Assembly: GCA_018222835.1 (NCBI GenBank)
Contig: JAAEZN010000005.1
Coordinates: 36,599 to 68,598 of the forward strand
Direction: 5' to 3'
Length of the DNA: 32,000 nt
From: Algicola sp.
GTDB taxonomy: Bacteria; Bacteroidota; Bacteroidia; Flavobacteriales; Flavobacteriaceae
Of the stretch, positions 1 through 5,661 are shown piece by piece. Each line of letters begins with the position of its first letter. Position 1 is the stretch's first letter. The translations under genes and the position numbers were made by a program. Below the pieces are notes generated by a model. It made no database searches. It was not told where the DNA came from and was given only the letters and a program-made list of their open reading frames with translations.

Positions 1-644
1 TAGGAAATCCAAACGAGCCCTATATTGTAAAACACTGGAGACAGGATTGGTTGTTCGAGAATACCAATCTATATACTTTTAATGCCAACAATAAATGGAC
101 ATACAAACAATTGAGCCCTGCGGAGGTTAAAGGACAGTGGACACAAAAAGTCTATCAAGTAGATGATAGCCCTCGTTACGAAGGCTCATCAACTTGGGTA
201 CATGTGGATGGAAAAAGTTATTGGGAAAATACCACGCCCGCTCCCCTTCCCCGTCGTGAGTACACTACTCGAAGCGATTATAATCTTACCATGCGCGGAA
301 ATCGTCAGGAGATTACGGAATATGGATGGTTGCACGAACAGGACAACGCCAAAATTATCCGCGAAGATGATAAAGAGGATGTTATTTTAGCTAAGGAAAA
401 AGGATACAACACCTATGTAAAGGTTGACGATAGCCGATGTGCAGGAGCCGCCAAATGGTGGAAAAAAAATCAGGAAAAATGGGCCATGGTTCGTACCAAA
501 TGGGATGAGGTTTACAACCGTAACACAAATCTTCAACTGGAAAGTAAAGTGGACAACAAAGTACTATTCAAGTATTTGCTGGATGAAGATACCTATAACG
601 AAAAGGATAAGATCAATGAGATCATCGAAGCATTTGTTAAATAA
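1..644 (+). CDS. Conserved hypothetical protein, C-terminal part (5' end lies outside the window)
   Basis: Frame +3 is open from base 3 (GNPNEPYIVKHWRQDW...) with no stop before the listed TTG at 51, so the ORF enters from the left edge. The stop is TAA at 642-644. The next same-strand gene starts 10 nt later. The sequence is W/Y/K-rich and looks soluble. I cannot name a family motif with confidence. Confidence 0.6.
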   Translation, partial: GNPNEPYIVKHWRQDWLFENTNLYTFNANNKWTYKQLSPAEVKGQWTQKVYQVDDSPRYEGSSTWVHVDGKSYWENTTPAPLPRREYTTRSDYNLTMRGNRQEITEYGWLHEQDNAKIIREDDKEDVILAKEKGYNTYVKVDDSRCAGAAKWWKKNQEKWAMVRTKWDEVYNRNTNLQLESKVDNKVLFKYLLDEDTYNEKDKINEIIEAFVK

Positions 645-654
645 CCATTATCAC

Positions 655-2154
655 ATGAAATCACTAAAGAAAATACTATTGTTTGGCTTGTTTTTGCCCA
701 CTTTTTCCATGGTTGCCCAGAGCAATAATGCATTTCTTGATAGGGCTTTCTGGAAAAATAACCCAGATGTTGAAGCCGTCAAGAACAAAATTAAGGAAGG
801 TAACGATCCTACGGCCCTCAACTCAAATGCCTTTGATGCTGTAGTATATGCACTTTTGGAAAAAGCCGACGATAATGTTATTGCATACTTGCTTTCCTTA
901 GAAGGAAATCCTGTGGACAAAAATACCCACGATAGCCGTATTTATTTGCACTGGGCCGCTTATGCCGGAAAAATTGAGATGGTAAGTTATTTACTGGAAA
1001 AGGGTTCCTCGGTAACTGATCTAGATAGTCATGGATATACTCCTTTGGCTTTTGCCGCCAATTCAGGCCAAAAAAATCCAGAGCTATATAATACTTTTGA
1101 AAAGCATGGAATCAACTTGACCAAAGAAAAAAGTGATCAGGGGGCCAACTTACTTCTATTGGTAGCACCATCATTGAATAGTGAGAAGGAATTAAAATTT
1201 TTTCTAAATAAAGGATTAAAGTTGGATAGTAAAGATGATTCCGGTAACGGCATTTTTAATTACGCGGCCAAAAAAGGAAATACCGATTTTCTTGATTTGC
1301 TCATAAAAAAAGGGGGGGATTATAAAACCCTCAATAAAGAAGGTGCCAATGCCTTTTTGTTTGCCTCGCAAGGCGGGCGTGGGTTCAGCAATCCTCTATC
1401 AGTTTATGAGTACTTGAAAAAACTTGGACTCGACCCAAACATGGTGACCAAAGATGGCTATACTCCTCTTCACCGTTTGGCCTATAATAATACAGACAAG
1501 GCCATTTTCGAATTGTTTCTATCAGCCGGTGCCGACGTAAACCAAAAAGATGCCAACGGCAATACTCCATTCTTAAACGCAGCCGCTCGAAACAACATGG
1601 GGATGGTTAAACTATTGTCCGAAGATGTTTCCGATTTTAATACAGCTAACGCCAATGGACAAACAGCCTTAATGCTTGCCACTGAAAATAACACTCCCGA
1701 AGTGGTGGGTTATTTGCTCGCCAAAGGTGCCGATGCCCTTGTAACGGACAATATGGGAAATTCAATAGCCTATTATTGGGCAGCCTCGTTTAGTGATAAA
1801 GATGCTGAAGCATTTGAGCAGAAAAAAATATTGTTCGAGAAAAAAGGTGTGGTCTTCAATAACGTACAAGCTGATGGTAATACCTTGTACCATTTGGCAG
1901 CAAAGAACAATAATGTGTCCCTTGCCAAAAAATTGGAAGGGTTTGGGATTGACCTGAATGCCAAAAACGATGAAGGACTTACCGCACTACATTTGGCTGC
2001 CATGAAAGCCGAAAATGATGGATTGATGAAATACTTGATATCCATCGGGGCCGATGTAAAAATCAAGACCGACTTTGAAGAAACGGTTTATGACCTGGCC
2101 AGCGAAAATGAACTCTTACAAAAACAAAACATAGGATTAAACTTTTTAAAGTAA
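655..2154 (+). CDS. Secreted ankyrin-repeat protein (about 499 aa)
   Basis: ATG at 655 opens a classic signal peptide (MKSLKKILLFGLFLPTFSMVAQ). About 33-aa ANK units recur with the G-x-TPL/ALH-x-AA signature (GYTPLAFAANSG, GYTPLHRLAYNN, GNTPFLNAAARNN, GQTALMLATENN, GNTLYHLAAKNN, GLTALHLAAMKA). The longer listed ORF from 424 overlaps the preceding gene and is not needed. Confidence 0.9.
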   Translation: MKSLKKILLFGLFLPTFSMVAQSNNAFLDRAFWKNNPDVEAVKNKIKEGNDPTALNSNAFDAVVYALLEKADDNVIAYLLSLEGNPVDKNTHDSRIYLHWAAYAGKIEMVSYLLEKGSSVTDLDSHGYTPLAFAANSGQKNPELYNTFEKHGINLTKEKSDQGANLLLLVAPSLNSEKELKFFLNKGLKLDSKDDSGNGIFNYAAKKGNTDFLDLLIKKGGDYKTLNKEGANAFLFASQGGRGFSNPLSVYEYLKKLGLDPNMVTKDGYTPLHRLAYNNTDKAIFELFLSAGADVNQKDANGNTPFLNAAARNNMGMVKLLSEDVSDFNTANANGQTALMLATENNTPEVVGYLLAKGADALVTDNMGNSIAYYWAASFSDKDAEAFEQKKILFEKKGVVFNNVQADGNTLYHLAAKNNNVSLAKKLEGFGIDLNAKNDEGLTALHLAAMKAENDGLMKYLISIGADVKIKTDFEETVYDLASENELLQKQNIGLNFLK

Positions 2155-2155
2155 G

Positions 2156-2641
2156 ATGAAGAAATTAATGAAGATTGCCCCTGTACTTATGCTTGCAGGA
2201 TTACTTTTTACCGCTTTTGCACCTACCCAGACCAAAACAATAAAATGTCTTATCCAAATGACCAATTATTCTGGTGAAGGAGCCTATTTGGTAGTTTCTC
2301 TCCTAAAACCTGATGGTGAATACGAAGAGACGCTCTATGTACAAGGAAAGGATAGTGAGTGGTATAGCGAAATTCCCGAATGGTGGAAGTTTTATGGTAA
2401 ATATCGTCCGAATATAGATGGCATTTCCGGAGAAACTATTAGCGGCGGGGAACGTACCGTTACCATTTTACAAATACCCGAGGACAAGATCGATAAAGGT
2501 TATAGTATTCGTTTTGAAACTTCTGTTGAAGATCAGGATTACTACATGGACGACATTCAATTTGAGCTTACTTCGGATAACCTGAAAAGCAAAAAAGAAG
2601 GAAAAGGATTTATTCGCTACGTGCGTATGCTTGCTCAGTAA
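2156..2641 (+). CDS. Secreted DUF2271-like protein (possible flavinylation substrate)
   Basis: The start lies 1 nt after the ankyrin stop. It has an N-terminal signal peptide (MKKLMKIAPVLMLAGLLFTAFA). Its size (161 aa) and the YLVVSLL...DGISGET...GGER pattern resemble the DUF2271 pattern I remember (AYVAVW... D-A-V-S/T-G-A-T). It sits immediately upstream of a PepSY-TM gene, which is the usual DUF2271 context. Confidence 0.6.
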   Translation: MKKLMKIAPVLMLAGLLFTAFAPTQTKTIKCLIQMTNYSGEGAYLVVSLLKPDGEYEETLYVQGKDSEWYSEIPEWWKFYGKYRPNIDGISGETISGGERTVTILQIPEDKIDKGYSIRFETSVEDQDYYMDDIQFELTSDNLKSKKEGKGFIRYVRMLAQ

Positions 2642-2650
2642 AAACTATTT

Positions 2651-4855
2651 ATGACCATTTCCATTTGGCGATATAGCCATTTTTTACTGGCTCTGGTTTC
2701 ATCCTTATTTCTTTTGATAGCCTCTGTGACCGGGATTATTTTAGCGGTCGAACCTATCCAGCATCAGGCAAAAGGTTATGCAATCAAGAATTTGGACCAG
2801 ATATCGTTGGCGACCACAATCAACGCCTTAGAGCAGAATTATGATGAAGTATTCTCTGTTGAGGTAGAATCATCCAATTTTGTAAAGGTCTCGGTTCTGA
2901 CCATGGATTTGGAAACGCTCAATATTTACATCGACCCACGAACGGGCGAACAATTGGGTGTGGTCCAAGACCGCTCAAACCTATATAGTTTTGCAACCAA
3001 TCTACACCGCTCTCTGTTCCTAAAAAGCATTGGGCGGTTTTTTGTAGGACTGATTTCGTTCTTGTTGTTGTGTATTGCCATAACGGGGTTGGTACTGCTT
3101 GCTAAGCGACAAGGAGGTATAAGACGATTGTTTACCAAGGTACAAAAGGACTATTTGGAGCTTCGTTTTCATGTAATATTGAGTCGGTGGTTTTTTATTC
3201 CGATCATTATTCTTTCAGTTACTGGTGTATATCTTTCTGCGGAGAAATTCAACCTGCTTCCAGATACATCGGCAGACAATTGGAAAAAGCAGCAAATCGA
3301 ATCCCATACCACATACAAAAGTGTCCTAGCAATTCCTCTTTTCCAGAATACAACCCTGGATAATATTCGAAAAATTGAGTTTCCATTTTCCGAAGACCCG
3401 GAGGAGTTTTATCTAATTGCCTTAAAAAACAGGGAGATTCAGGTAAATCAAGAAACCGGGGAAATAATTGCAAGCGCTTCATATCCATTTGTGAATCTGG
3501 CTTCAAGGTTTAGCTATAAAATGCACACAGGAGAAGGTAGTGTTTGGTGGTCCCTGATTCTATTATTGGCAAGCGCATCCATTTTGTTTTTTATCTATTC
3601 CGGATTTGTGATGTCGGTAAAGCGCATTAAGCGAGGTAAAAAAGACACTGCTCTATCCCAAATGCCGGATAAAGACGAAAGTGAAATCATTATTATGGTC
3701 GGTTCGGAAACTGGAACCACCTACGATTTCGGTGTACAATTGTTCCAATCTTTGAGTTCGGTCGGTAAGAAAGTTTTTCTAAGCGAATTAAACCAATATG
3801 CCACCTATCCAAAGGCAGAGCACATTATTATTTTAACTTCCACTTATGGTGAGGGCGAGTCACCAACAAACGCAAGAAAATTTCTAGCCCGTTTAAAGTC
3901 TGTGCACCAACCGATAAACCTCAACTATGCGGTTGTTGGTTTTGGTTCGATGGAATACCCCGAATATTGCAAATATGCTGTTGAGGTAGATGAAGAACTG
4001 AATCACCTAGAAAGCTTTACTCCCCTACTGCAACTTCAAAAAATCAATAATGCAGAGTTTTCTACTTTCAATACATGGGCGCAAAAGTGGGGTCAAGCCT
4101 CAAAAATTGAATTCTCGCTCCAAGCTCCGCCTAAAAAGCAACAAAAAATTAAATTGCTTTCTTTCGATGTTGTTCATAGATCGGAACTAAATATCGATGA
4201 TACTTTTTTACTTAGGCTACGACCTAAAAAAAGAGTTGACTTTACTTCTGGAGACCTATTGTCCATTTATCCTGAAGATTCCGATGTTGCACGACAATAT
4301 TCCATTGCCAAAATTGAGAAGGAAATTGTTTTAAGCATCAAAAAGCATGAATTCGGGCGCTGCTCCACCTTTCTTTCCAAATTAGAAAAAGGAGCTACAC
4401 TAACGGCAAGCATCGATAAGAATCCACACTTTCATTTTCCAAAGAAAGTAAACTCTGCCATACTTATTTCCAATGGAACAGGTATTGCCCCATTTTTGGG
4501 AATGATACACCAGAGCAATTGTTCCAACATTAATCTGCTTTGGGGTGTTCGTTACTGGACATCTACAATATTGTACAAGGATTATTTAGAAAATCGGATT
4601 GAATGCAACCCGAAAATCAACCATTCTATCGCTTTCTCGAGAGAGGAAAACAAAATGTATGTGCAAGATATGCTTTCCGATCAAAAAGAAATTGTTCTAA
4701 AAGCCATTCAAGAAGATGGTTGCATCATGATCTGTGGGTCACTTGCCATGCAAAAACAAGTGCTCGATGTTCTGGAGTCAATGCTTCAGGAACACACTGA
4801 TTTGGACCTTGACCTACTCAAAAGTAATGGTCAATTAAAAATGGATTGTTACTGA
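2651..4855 (+). CDS. PepSY-associated transmembrane domain fused to flavodoxin-like (FMN) and FNR-like (FAD/NAD(P)H) reductase modules, similar to sulfite reductase flavoprotein (CysJ) or CPR
   Basis: The N-terminal ~330 aa contains four hydrophobic helices with His at helix boundaries (IWRYSHFLL, NLHRSLFL, LRFHVILSRW, YKMHTGEG), typical of PepSY_TM proteins. After the last helix comes a basic stretch (VKRIKRGKKD). A flavodoxin module follows (IIIMVGSETGTTYDFG, ILTSTYGEGESPTNA). The FNR module has RQYSIA (the RxYS FAD motif), SNGTGIAPFLG (NAD(P)H motif), ICGS...M and a C-terminal aromatic residue (..MDCY). Confidence 0.85.
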   Translation: MTISIWRYSHFLLALVSSLFLLIASVTGIILAVEPIQHQAKGYAIKNLDQISLATTINALEQNYDEVFSVEVESSNFVKVSVLTMDLETLNIYIDPRTGEQLGVVQDRSNLYSFATNLHRSLFLKSIGRFFVGLISFLLLCIAITGLVLLAKRQGGIRRLFTKVQKDYLELRFHVILSRWFFIPIIILSVTGVYLSAEKFNLLPDTSADNWKKQQIESHTTYKSVLAIPLFQNTTLDNIRKIEFPFSEDPEEFYLIALKNREIQVNQETGEIIASASYPFVNLASRFSYKMHTGEGSVWWSLILLLASASILFFIYSGFVMSVKRIKRGKKDTALSQMPDKDESEIIIMVGSETGTTYDFGVQLFQSLSSVGKKVFLSELNQYATYPKAEHIIILTSTYGEGESPTNARKFLARLKSVHQPINLNYAVVGFGSMEYPEYCKYAVEVDEELNHLESFTPLLQLQKINNAEFSTFNTWAQKWGQASKIEFSLQAPPKKQQKIKLLSFDVVHRSELNIDDTFLLRLRPKKRVDFTSGDLLSIYPEDSDVARQYSIAKIEKEIVLSIKKHEFGRCSTFLSKLEKGATLTASIDKNPHFHFPKKVNSAILISNGTGIAPFLGMIHQSNCSNINLLWGVRYWTSTILYKDYLENRIECNPKINHSIAFSREENKMYVQDMLSDQKEIVLKAIQEDGCIMICGSLAMQKQVLDVLESMLQEHTDLDLDLLKSNGQLKMDCY

Positions 4856-5025: not shown

Positions 5026-5661
5026 ATGGTGTACATCGAGGAGACCTTTTACTATGATTACTCCACTCCTGAAATTCAGGACATGGTTGAAAACATTAAA
5101 AACCTGGCTTCAGATCAGGAAAAAATAGAGCAACTGTACCTTAAAGTTAGGGATAGTTGGCGATACAATCCGTATAATATTGGATTAACGCCCGCCCATT
5201 ACAAAGCCAGTGCCATAGCCCAAAAACCTGTTGGGCATTGTATCGATAAAGCTATTCTGTATGTTGCAGGGCTTCGTGCATTGCATATACCTGCAAGGTT
5301 ACGGTTGGCAAAAGTGGCCAATCACATTGCAACAGAGCATTTGGAAGAAACTTTGGGCTCGCACGAAATAGCTCCCCATGGTTTGGTAGATGTGCTTTAT
5401 AATGGTGGTTGGTTCAAATGCTCGCCAGCTTTTAACAAAGAGCTCTGCGAACTCTATAATGTTGCCCCTTTAGAGTTTGATGGTACTGAAGATTCCATTT
5501 TTCAGGAATATAACAGGGACAACAAACAATTTATGGAGTATTTGGAAGATTACGGTCATTTTGAAGATGTTCCTATTGAGTTCATCTTTAAGACCTTTAA
5601 GGATACCTATCCCGAAATCAGCAAAAAAACACAAGGCGCAAAAGAGTTTAAAATCAAGTAA
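5026..5661 (+). CDS. Transglutaminase-like (cysteine-protease fold) family protein
   Basis: An in-frame TAA lies two codons upstream of the ATG. It carries a transglutaminase-core-like Cys motif (VGHCIDKAILYVAGLRALHIPARL) followed by a His/Asp segment (IAPHGLVDVLYNGGW). There is no signal peptide. Confidence 0.7.
   Translation: MVYIEETFYYDYSTPEIQDMVENIKNLASDQEKIEQLYLKVRDSWRYNPYNIGLTPAHYKASAIAQKPVGHCIDKAILYVAGLRALHIPARLRLAKVANHIATEHLEETLGSHEIAPHGLVDVLYNGGWFKCSPAFNKELCELYNVAPLEFDGTEDSIFQEYNRDNKQFMEYLEDYGHFEDVPIEFIFKTFKDTYPEISKKTQGAKEFKIK

Follow-up and report, generated by a model that had tools for sequence, protein, structure and literature searches.

What is the function of an operon in which a membrane protein carrying its own flavin reductase is preceded by genes for a haem-binding protein, an ankyrin-repeat protein and a DUF2271 protein? 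The question is raised by the beginning of the stretch of DNA analysed here (the window), 32,000 nucleotides (nt) of the marine flavobacterium Algicola sp. (contig JAAEZN010000005.1, positions 36,599 to 68,598; G000:C130:36599-68598 in our numbering), from a genome of 3.5 Mb that is 99.98% complete and has Flagellimonas and Muricauda, both Flavobacteriaceae, as its nearest public relatives. Four genes lie there on the + strand, as do all features inside the window described below, and their open reading frames (ORFs) are separated by gaps of 10, 1 and 9 nt, just as an earlier reading of this DNA from its letters (the sequence-only reading) had stated. They are the 3' part of a rhuH-like gene (gene 1; 213 codons, 1..644, with the ORF called at 3..644 and open at its 5' end), a gene for a 499-amino-acid (aa) ankyrin-repeat protein starting MKSLKK (gene 2; 655..2154), a DUF2271 gene (gene 3; 161 aa, 2156..2641), and a gene that fuses PepSY_TM, flavodoxin and ferredoxin-NADP+ reductase (FNR)-like domains (gene 4; 734 aa, 2651..4855). 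From comparison with relatives and with known systems, we consider it probable that this is a Fur-regulated operon for a periplasmic reductase, driven by nicotinamide adenine dinucleotide phosphate (NADPH), which would release iron, probably from haem.

The largest product, that of gene 4, is the electron-transferring part of the proposed system. Pfam profiles recognized PepSY_TM (PF03929; aa 9-325, E 2e-34), Flavodoxin_1 (PF00258; aa 348-453) and NAD_binding_1 (PF00175; aa 605-704) in its single ORF, so the fusion described in the sequence-only reading is real. The PepSY_TM match scored 120.2 bits against a gathering cut-off of 28.8 and extended over profile positions 3-295 of 295, and the membrane domain (2651..3640) is made up of four transmembrane (TM) helices, with two alpha/beta PepSY domains on the periplasmic side. 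Hydrophobic segments were found at residues 15-33, 132-150, 175-193 and 302-320, and an AlphaFold2 model (mean confidence, pLDDT, 78.7) placed helices at 2-40, 126-154, 173-199 and 298-337, with alpha+beta PepSY domains at 53-104 and 229-277; residues 346-484 of the model have a flavodoxin fold, and residues 503-734 an FNR fold. The loop at 151-172 is rich in lysine and arginine, and the stretch KRIKRGKK follows TM4. A topology with both termini inside and a cytoplasmic reductase fits this hydropathy, charge distribution and model; the earlier placement of the reductase on the cytoplasmic side agrees with this. Public names for the fusion are "PepSY domain-containing protein" and "sulfite reductase flavoprotein alpha".

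Four histidines at the helix boundaries, H10 and those in NLHRS, LRFHV and KMHTG, had already been singled out from the sequence, and all four (H10, H119, H174 and H292) proved invariant in 45 orthologs with 38-81% identity to the window protein. His10 (codon at 2678..2680) and His174 (RFHV; 3170..3172) are candidate axial ligands of a cytoplasmic-side haem b, and His119 (NLHRS; 3005..3007) and His292 (KMHTG; 3524..3526) of a periplasmic-side haem b. In the PepSY_TM protein FoxB, two haems b are held at the edges of the bilayer by conserved histidines, of which H198 on TM3 serves the cytoplasmic haem. A search of the Protein Data Bank (PDB) with a profile of the membrane domain returned FoxB (7ABW) as its sole match, with the first half only aligned (E 0.0034), and searches with the full-length sequence and profile returned reductases only, FoxB not among them. 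In the HMMER alignment H10 falls on FoxB H9 and H119 on the HH pair of FoxB EFHHNL. H174 lies at the cytoplasmic start of TM3, as does FoxB H198, and H292 is found at the periplasmic face shortly before TM4, so that the two-plus-two histidine layout of gene 4 matches that of FoxB.

The cytoplasmic part consists of a flavodoxin-like domain for flavin mononucleotide (FMN) (aa 345-484; 3683..4102; PF00258, E 3.3e-14; pLDDT about 90) and an FNR-like domain for flavin adenine dinucleotide (FAD) and NADPH (aa 503-734; 4157..4855; PF00175). The former contains the motifs GSETGTT, TSTYGEGE and GFGSMEYPEY, and the latter RQYS, GRCSTFL, GTGIAPF, FSREENKMYVQ, ICGS and a terminal Tyr734. The S-R...K.YVQ stretch of cytochrome P450 reductase (CPR) binds the 2'-phosphate of NADPH, and because gene 4 carries a stretch of this type, NADPH is the likely donor. 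The best Foldseek matches of the model were CysJ, nitric oxide synthase (NOS) and CPR. TIGR01931 (cysJ) aligned to aa 564-720 only, and all NCBIfam cysJ scores were far below their cut-offs; the Pfam scan found no FAD_binding_1 (PF00667), and just 18 residues separate the FMN and FAD modules in the model. The description of this part as a complete CysJ/CPR-like diflavin reductase therefore stands as regards the FMN and FAD/NAD(P)H motifs, all of which are present, but not as regards the connecting domain, which is absent.

The nature of the substrate is suggested by gene 1. The sequence-only reading treated its product as an upstream hypothetical protein; we identified it instead as a member of the RhuH (DUF6607) family of haem-binding proteins. 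The part inside the window matched DUF6607 with E 2.9e-79, and the complete product (301 aa), whose gene begins 261 nt before the window, at G000:C130:36337 of the contig, matched PF20311 with E 2.4e-102. RhuH (PDB 8XJC) is a novel haemophore of Riemerella anatipestifer, able to take haem from haemoproteins, with a dissociation constant for haem of 3.4e-11 M, in which His96 ligates the haem iron and R143, Y144, R170, R183 and Q198 bind the propionates (PMC11967795). The two proteins were related with a phmmer E value of 2.3e-90 and 54% identity over 258 aa, and the AlphaFold2 model of the gene 1 product (pLDDT 70) matched 8XJC in Foldseek with E 1e-20, followed by nitrobindin-type haem barrels. 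In an alignment free of gaps and offset by three positions, the six RhuH residues correspond to H99, R146, Y147, R173, R186 and Q201 of the gene 1 product, and these were invariant across 30 orthologs. By sequence, then, it is a RhuH ortholog with all haem-contacting residues kept, and haem binding is predicted. It has a Sec-type signal peptide (signal peptides were assigned by eye throughout), with neither a lipobox nor a tail for the type IX secretion system. A literature search for "DUF6607" returned nothing, and a term search of the RhuH paper (PMC11967795) found no mention of an operon, of ankyrin or of downstream genes, and the stem "reduc" only twice. One library representative of 673 aa (P0245) has a tandem pair of RhuH-like DUF6607 domains.

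Gene 2 likewise encodes an exported protein, as had been proposed for this ankyrin-repeat product: Ank_2 matched it in nine stretches (E 3.5e-72) behind an N-terminal signal peptide. Its orthologs are full length, with 37-83% identity to the window protein, and also have signal peptides. Their alignment shows a conserved N-terminal THDxRxYxxWA block and a conserved C-terminal DLAxENExL block, and no obvious conserved set of metal or haem ligands beyond these terminal blocks and the residues of the repeat consensus. When the RhuH-like sequence was searched against 1.8 billion representative proteins, the best 150 matches listed included a natural RhuH-ankyrin fusion of 779 aa (P0277). Its residues 15-286 are DUF6607, and its residues 305-779 are 40% identical over 486 aa to the window's mature ankyrin protein (E 7e-116), in an alignment that begins at the mature N-terminus and ends with NFLK at the C-terminus. 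This fusion suggests that RhuH-like and ankyrin proteins share a compartment and act together. A literature search that combined PepSY, ankyrin and iron found nothing relevant.

How constant the association of these genes is was examined in 65 Bacteroidia loci: 44 from different genera or species of Flavobacteriaceae, 17 further loci of Flavobacteriales belonging to four families (five of them again Flavobacteriaceae), and 4 from other Bacteroidia families. Conserved synteny in relatives, which the sequence-only reading presupposed, was found for the ankyrin, DUF2271 and fusion genes, a trio that occurs together in 64 of the 65 loci; DUF2271 and the reductase thus have the ankyrin protein as an obligate partner. 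The remaining locus (L074, G033:C4) is the only one in which ankyrin and DUF2271 genes are not beside the fusion gene; a DUF6607 gene lies about 40 kb away on the same contig, and that genome has a CobN/HmuS-type gene. Across all loci, rhuH-like (DUF6607) genes were present in 32, TonB-dependent receptor genes in 37 and HmuY-like genes in 26. Among the 44 Flavobacteriaceae loci, rhuH is the first gene of the trio's operon in 29, and in 24 the rhuH-like gene is adjoined by a TonB-dependent receptor gene, usually with an HmuY-like gene and mostly in divergent orientation, which is the layout of rhuR-rhuA/rhuH in R. anatipestifer. In the window's genome, the receptor and HmuY pair is on contig C58, where the bidirectional type of promoter is intact but lacks a divergently transcribed gene on its other side. 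The two inverted boxes that characterize the rhuR/rhuH promoter in other genera are both present at G000:C58:2950-3060 (locus L097). From this intact promoter without its divergent gene we conclude that the rhuH operon has moved; the C58 promoter looks like a scar of its relocation to C130.

The same gene neighborhoods bear on the alternative that survives best, although we regard it as unlikely: that the trio is, like FoxB, XusC or HiuB, a general reductase of ferric chelates (siderophores or inorganic Fe(III)), though with its own NADPH input, RhuH being co-regulated with it within an iron island and haem not the substrate. Characterized PepSY_TM proteins reduce ferric siderophores, the fusion occurs without DUF6607 in 17 genera, and in 11 loci, that of R. 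anatipestifer included, the trio follows a receptor and a surface lipoprotein in an arrangement similar to XusABC, with no rhuH there. This variant (L059, L060, L063, L064, L069, L071, L073, L075, L080, L084 and L100) consists of a CarboxypepD_reg-type TonB-dependent receptor, a lipoprotein of 430-480 aa and then the ankyrin, DUF2271 and reductase genes; such a different receptor and uncharacterized lipoprotein precede the ankyrin gene in 8 of the 44 Flavobacteriaceae loci. However, the lipoprotein (family c9) has no match to DUF4374 (XusB) or to any other Pfam family, and both the RhuH-ankyrin fusion P0277 and the position of rhuH at the head of the same operon in 29 of the 44 loci speak against a general chelate reductase.

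The third gene may supply the link between the membrane and the periplasm. Its product is a secreted DUF2271 protein (PF10029, E 1.2e-36), as had been supposed, and is 43-94% identical to its orthologs. ApbE has been shown experimentally to flavinylate DUF2271 at the motif [S/T]GA[S/T] (PMC8238504). The orthologs have the consensus IDAITGATI at this position, and the window protein has D88-G-I-S-G-E-T94 (2417..2437), in which the ortholog alignment places Glu for Ala. This substitution is shared, since G-E-T occurs in 15 of 64 orthologs (the window's among these) and G-A-[TS] in 49, and the final Thr/Ser is present in 64 of 64, all Glu variants included. Two apbE genes were found in the genome, one on C124 beside a DUF3570 gene and the other on C139 after nqrF. 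Elsewhere an apbE adjoins the trio in 11 of 65 loci, and in 9 of these, including that of R. anatipestifer, it lies directly downstream of the fusion gene on the same strand; the C124 gene is of the type that adjoins the trio in other genera. The window's DUF2271 protein is accordingly presumed to be an ApbE-flavinylated periplasmic electron carrier. The C124 apbE (locus L002) is itself clustered with genes for a thioredoxin-like protein, a Rieske protein and DUF3570, a further known substrate of ApbE; this cluster forms a flavinylation-associated system of its own, separate from the operon.

The Glu variant gives rise to a second alternative, in which the SGET type of DUF2271 is not flavinylated, the periplasmic PepSY haem reduces the substrate directly, and DUF2271 and the ankyrin protein are non-redox adaptors. 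We consider this improbable. It would be in line with the function of FoxB without any DUF2271, with the replacement of the motif Ala in nearly a quarter of the orthologs and with the lack of apbE in 54 of the 65 loci, but the target Thr/Ser is retained universally, in Glu variants too, and the genome has kept an apbE of the trio-adjacent type and a DUF2271 that is otherwise as similar to its orthologs as the identities above indicate.

If iron is the object of the operon, its expression should follow iron supply, and the evidence for this comes from R. anatipestifer. In our set, genome G505 was identified as R. anatipestifer because one of its proteins has 100% identity to the RhuH sequence of 8XJC. 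Its trio locus has the order receptor, lipoprotein, ankyrin, DUF2271, fusion, ApbE, which matches that of B739_0173-0177, genes named "CirA", hypothetical, "Ankyrin", "Predicted periplasmic protein" and "Nitric oxide synthase" and changed in low iron by log2 +3.3, 3.6, 2.4, 3.1 and 1.05, respectively (PMC5429918). The cluster's first gene, B739_0173, has a promoter bound by Fur and is derepressed in a fur mutant (PMC7976709). In the window's genome, gene 1 is preceded by a 257-nt intergenic region and then a GDSL lipase gene, and the operon promoter lies outside the window. A Fur-type box, ATTCTTATTTAGATTAATTATAATTAA, was found at C130:36270-36296, 329-303 nt before window base 1 and about 60 nt upstream of gene 1, followed by a TAnnTTTG element. 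It resembles the tested Fur box of rhuH. A similar box is present in 26 of 30 rhuH-type promoters, and also at the position, 25 bp before the ATG, that the RhuH paper gives for its tested Fur box. A scan of the genome with a 27-nt matrix gave best sites scoring 25-35, compared with a maximum of 17.7 in the shuffled genome, and the top sites precede this operon, the rhuR-like receptor and HmuY pair on C58, receptors on C113 and C104, and feoAB on C3. From the R. anatipestifer orthologs and the shared box we infer that the window operon is under iron and Fur control. The 9-nt half-site TTATTTAGA, tried as a genome-wide signal, was rejected, as it is not enriched (69 found compared with 89 expected) and only the 27-nt matrix is specific.

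The sequence-only reading had named the upstream DNA as a place to look for apbE, Fur boxes or iron transporters; the Fur-type box is there, and directly upstream of gene 1 on C130 we found no apbE, iron transporter or TonB-dependent receptor gene. With its promoter beyond the window and both apbE genes on other contigs, the operon is not self-contained, contrary to the earlier claim. Downstream, no terminator-like site was found in the sequence after gene 4. The next gene, which has a transglutaminase core, lies at 5026-5661 (+), 170 nt downstream, and only the closest relative (L004) has kept it there, so that we place the 3' end of the operon after gene 4 because of this gap and the lack of conservation; the transglutaminase-core gene is probably outside the system. 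In several other genera, small proteins of about 105-130 aa are encoded just downstream of the fusion gene (L045, L047, L048, L053, L054 and L066); they fall into families c17, which is DUF6686 in Pfam, and c19, which matches no Pfam family. A protein of 105 aa at G000:C109:20560-20917, also without a Pfam match, is encoded behind a high-scoring copy of the Fur-type box. The c17, c19 and C109 proteins may be further members of the regulon.

It is very improbable that the operon supplies electrons not for iron release but for periplasmic oxidative-stress defence or repair (similar to MsrPQ, or to AnkB/KatB, the periplasmic ankyrin protein AnkB supporting the catalase KatB in Pseudomonas) or for copper reduction (as proposed for CrpH), since, diverse as PepSY_TM proteins are, with a CrpH subfamily that supports haem-copper oxidases, catalase, Msr and copper genes are not recurrent neighbors in the 65 loci, the R. 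anatipestifer orthologs are under Fur and iron control, and the promoter box is common to feoAB and TonB-dependent receptors.

Taken as a Fur-regulated periplasmic reductase for iron release, the system might work as follows, where we infer which cofactors are bound, in which direction and order electrons flow, and what accepts them. Electrons from cytoplasmic NADPH would enter FAD in the FNR domain and pass to FMN in the flavodoxin domain, then to the cytoplasmic-face haem b (His10/His174), the periplasmic-face haem b (His119/His292) and finally the flavin of DUF2271, a covalent FMN whose attachment would fall to an ApbE from another part of the genome. The histidines, the predicted topology, the synteny and the conserved Thr/Ser of DUF2271 all support the conduit from NAD(P)H through FAD, FMN and haem to periplasmic DUF2271 that the sequence-only reading had put forward. 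The RhuH-type protein would bind haem, and the ankyrin protein would be a periplasmic scaffold. The terminal acceptor would be Fe(III) in a ligand imported by a TonB-dependent receptor, for which haem held by RhuH and the ankyrin protein is the leading candidate, favored tentatively; other ferric chelates are an unlikely second. The freed Fe(II) would enter the cytoplasm via FeoB.

Work on RhuH assumes that haem iron is released by means of a transporter of the ATP-binding cassette (ABC) type and a haem oxygenase (PMC11967795). A profile search of the window's genome found no Heme_oxygenase (PF01126), HemS/ChuS (PF05171), CobN/HmuS (PF02514) or HugZ-type DUF2470 (PF10615), the IsdG-like and radical S-adenosylmethionine (ChuW) enzymes not being part of the search, and feoAB is present. 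With these four haem-degrading or dechelating families unmatched and feoAB in place, there is room for a possible release of iron from haem in the periplasm. We also looked for a complementary distribution of HmuS/CobN and the fusion, but PF02514 occurred in 11 of 301 genera, 7 of these with the fusion, and the lack of anticorrelation is uninformative. A more far-reaching and rather doubtful conjecture, built on these comparisons, is that the trio represents an undescribed periplasmic machine of Bacteroidia, in which haem imported by RhuR/RhuA and held by RhuH on the ankyrin protein would be reduced by NADPH-derived electrons and dechelated or degraded outside the cytoplasm, replacing an inner-membrane haem transporter and a cytoplasmic haem oxygenase, which were undetected in the genome.

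Several observations weigh against the proposed role in iron release from haem. The modules are separable. Among 301 Flavobacteriaceae genera the fusion was found in 73 and DUF6607 in 96, and although their joint presence in 56 and adjacency in 46 speak for a haem link (a descriptive count, since the genera are related), DUF6607 occurs without the fusion in 40 sampled genera and the reverse holds in 17. In R. anatipestifer itself, the trio is located with another receptor and an uncharacterized lipoprotein, away from rhuH. RhuH has been reported to be secreted in outer-membrane vesicles and to act extracellularly (PMC11967795), and a vesicle-borne RhuH is hard to reconcile with a redox partner in the periplasm, unless it acts there as well. 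The fusion P0277 is one representative among the 150 best matches. The locus in the window has no apbE, receptor or HmuY gene, and its DUF2271 has S-G-E-T in place of the published motif. Lastly, H174 and H292 were left unaligned to FoxB by HMMER and were matched by position alone, and the haem b, flavins and reductase activity of the family members are predicted.

If the proposal is correct, it bears on how Flavobacteriia free haem iron after uptake across the outer membrane, and on where FoxB and other PepSY_TM reductases obtain their electrons. This subfamily names a donor (the fused NADPH-FAD-FMN module), a periplasmic flavin carrier and an ankyrin partner tied to a haem-binding protein, and would give a function to the poorly understood periplasmic ankyrin-repeat proteins of bacteria. 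It also offers a compact four-gene system for studying the supply of electrons across the membrane to iron and haem acquisition, one that occurs in Flavobacterium, Riemerella and many marine genera.

Parts of the system have known counterparts. Eukaryotic NOX, FRE and STEAP proteins resemble gene 4 in their mode of working, in which electrons pass within one polypeptide from cytoplasmic NADPH to flavin, to two stacked haems b and to an extracytoplasmic metal or O2. However, their six-helix ferric_reduct fold is unrelated to the four-helix PepSY_TM, and in gene 4 the membrane domain is N-terminal and an extra FMN domain is present; a Pfam scan of gene 4 found no ferric_reduct (PF01794), FAD_binding_8 or NAD_binding_6. 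The resemblance to NOX and FRE is functional, not ancestral. The diflavin reductases CPR, CysJ and NOS share the order of FMN and then FAD/NADPH domains, the cofactor motifs and a haem partner, whereas gene 4 has no connecting domain or FAD_binding_1, an FNR part of only about 230 aa, and a fused membrane di-haem domain in place of a P450, sulfite reductase or NOS oxygenase partner. FoxB (7ABW), FpvG, XusC and HiuB share with gene 4 the four TM helices, the pair of PepSY domains in the periplasm and the four conserved histidines for two haems b; they have no fused cytoplasmic reductase, whereas here an NADPH module and a periplasmic flavoprotein are added, and the sequence similarity to the FoxB type is marginal (the single first-half match noted above).

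The electron conduit as such is a kind of system that has already been published. Méheust 2021 described "PepSY-like systems" in 3220 clusters, of which 2833 contain DUF2271, counted 1077 PepSY-like genes to which an NAD-binding domain is fused, and proposed that iron is reduced outside the cytosol, with links to Fur and to TonB-dependent receptors (PMC8238504); a follow-up paper relates the haem sites of PepSY and MsrQ. As in those flavinylation-associated systems, the PepSY_TM gene is clustered with a DUF2271 gene, here 9 nt upstream. The window's locus differs in that it has no apbE, which is frequent and not obligatory there, and no DUF4198 gene, and has an obligate secreted ankyrin partner, a haemophore gene in first position and a flavodoxin between the FNR and membrane domains. 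The main text and one part of the supplement of that study contain no entry for ankyrin, PF12796 or Ank_2 (PMC8238504). The RhuH-RhuR-RhuA system (PMC11967795; 8XJC) is matched in the many relatives that also have rhuH divergent from a receptor and HmuY-like pair, with a common Fur-type box. In R. anatipestifer, rhuH stands alone beside rhuR-rhuA, whereas here it heads the ankyrin-DUF2271-reductase operon and the receptor pair is on C58. What is new, compared with these systems, is the conserved periplasmic ankyrin partner, together with a link to the haem-binding protein RhuH that is both genetic and, in the fusion, physical.

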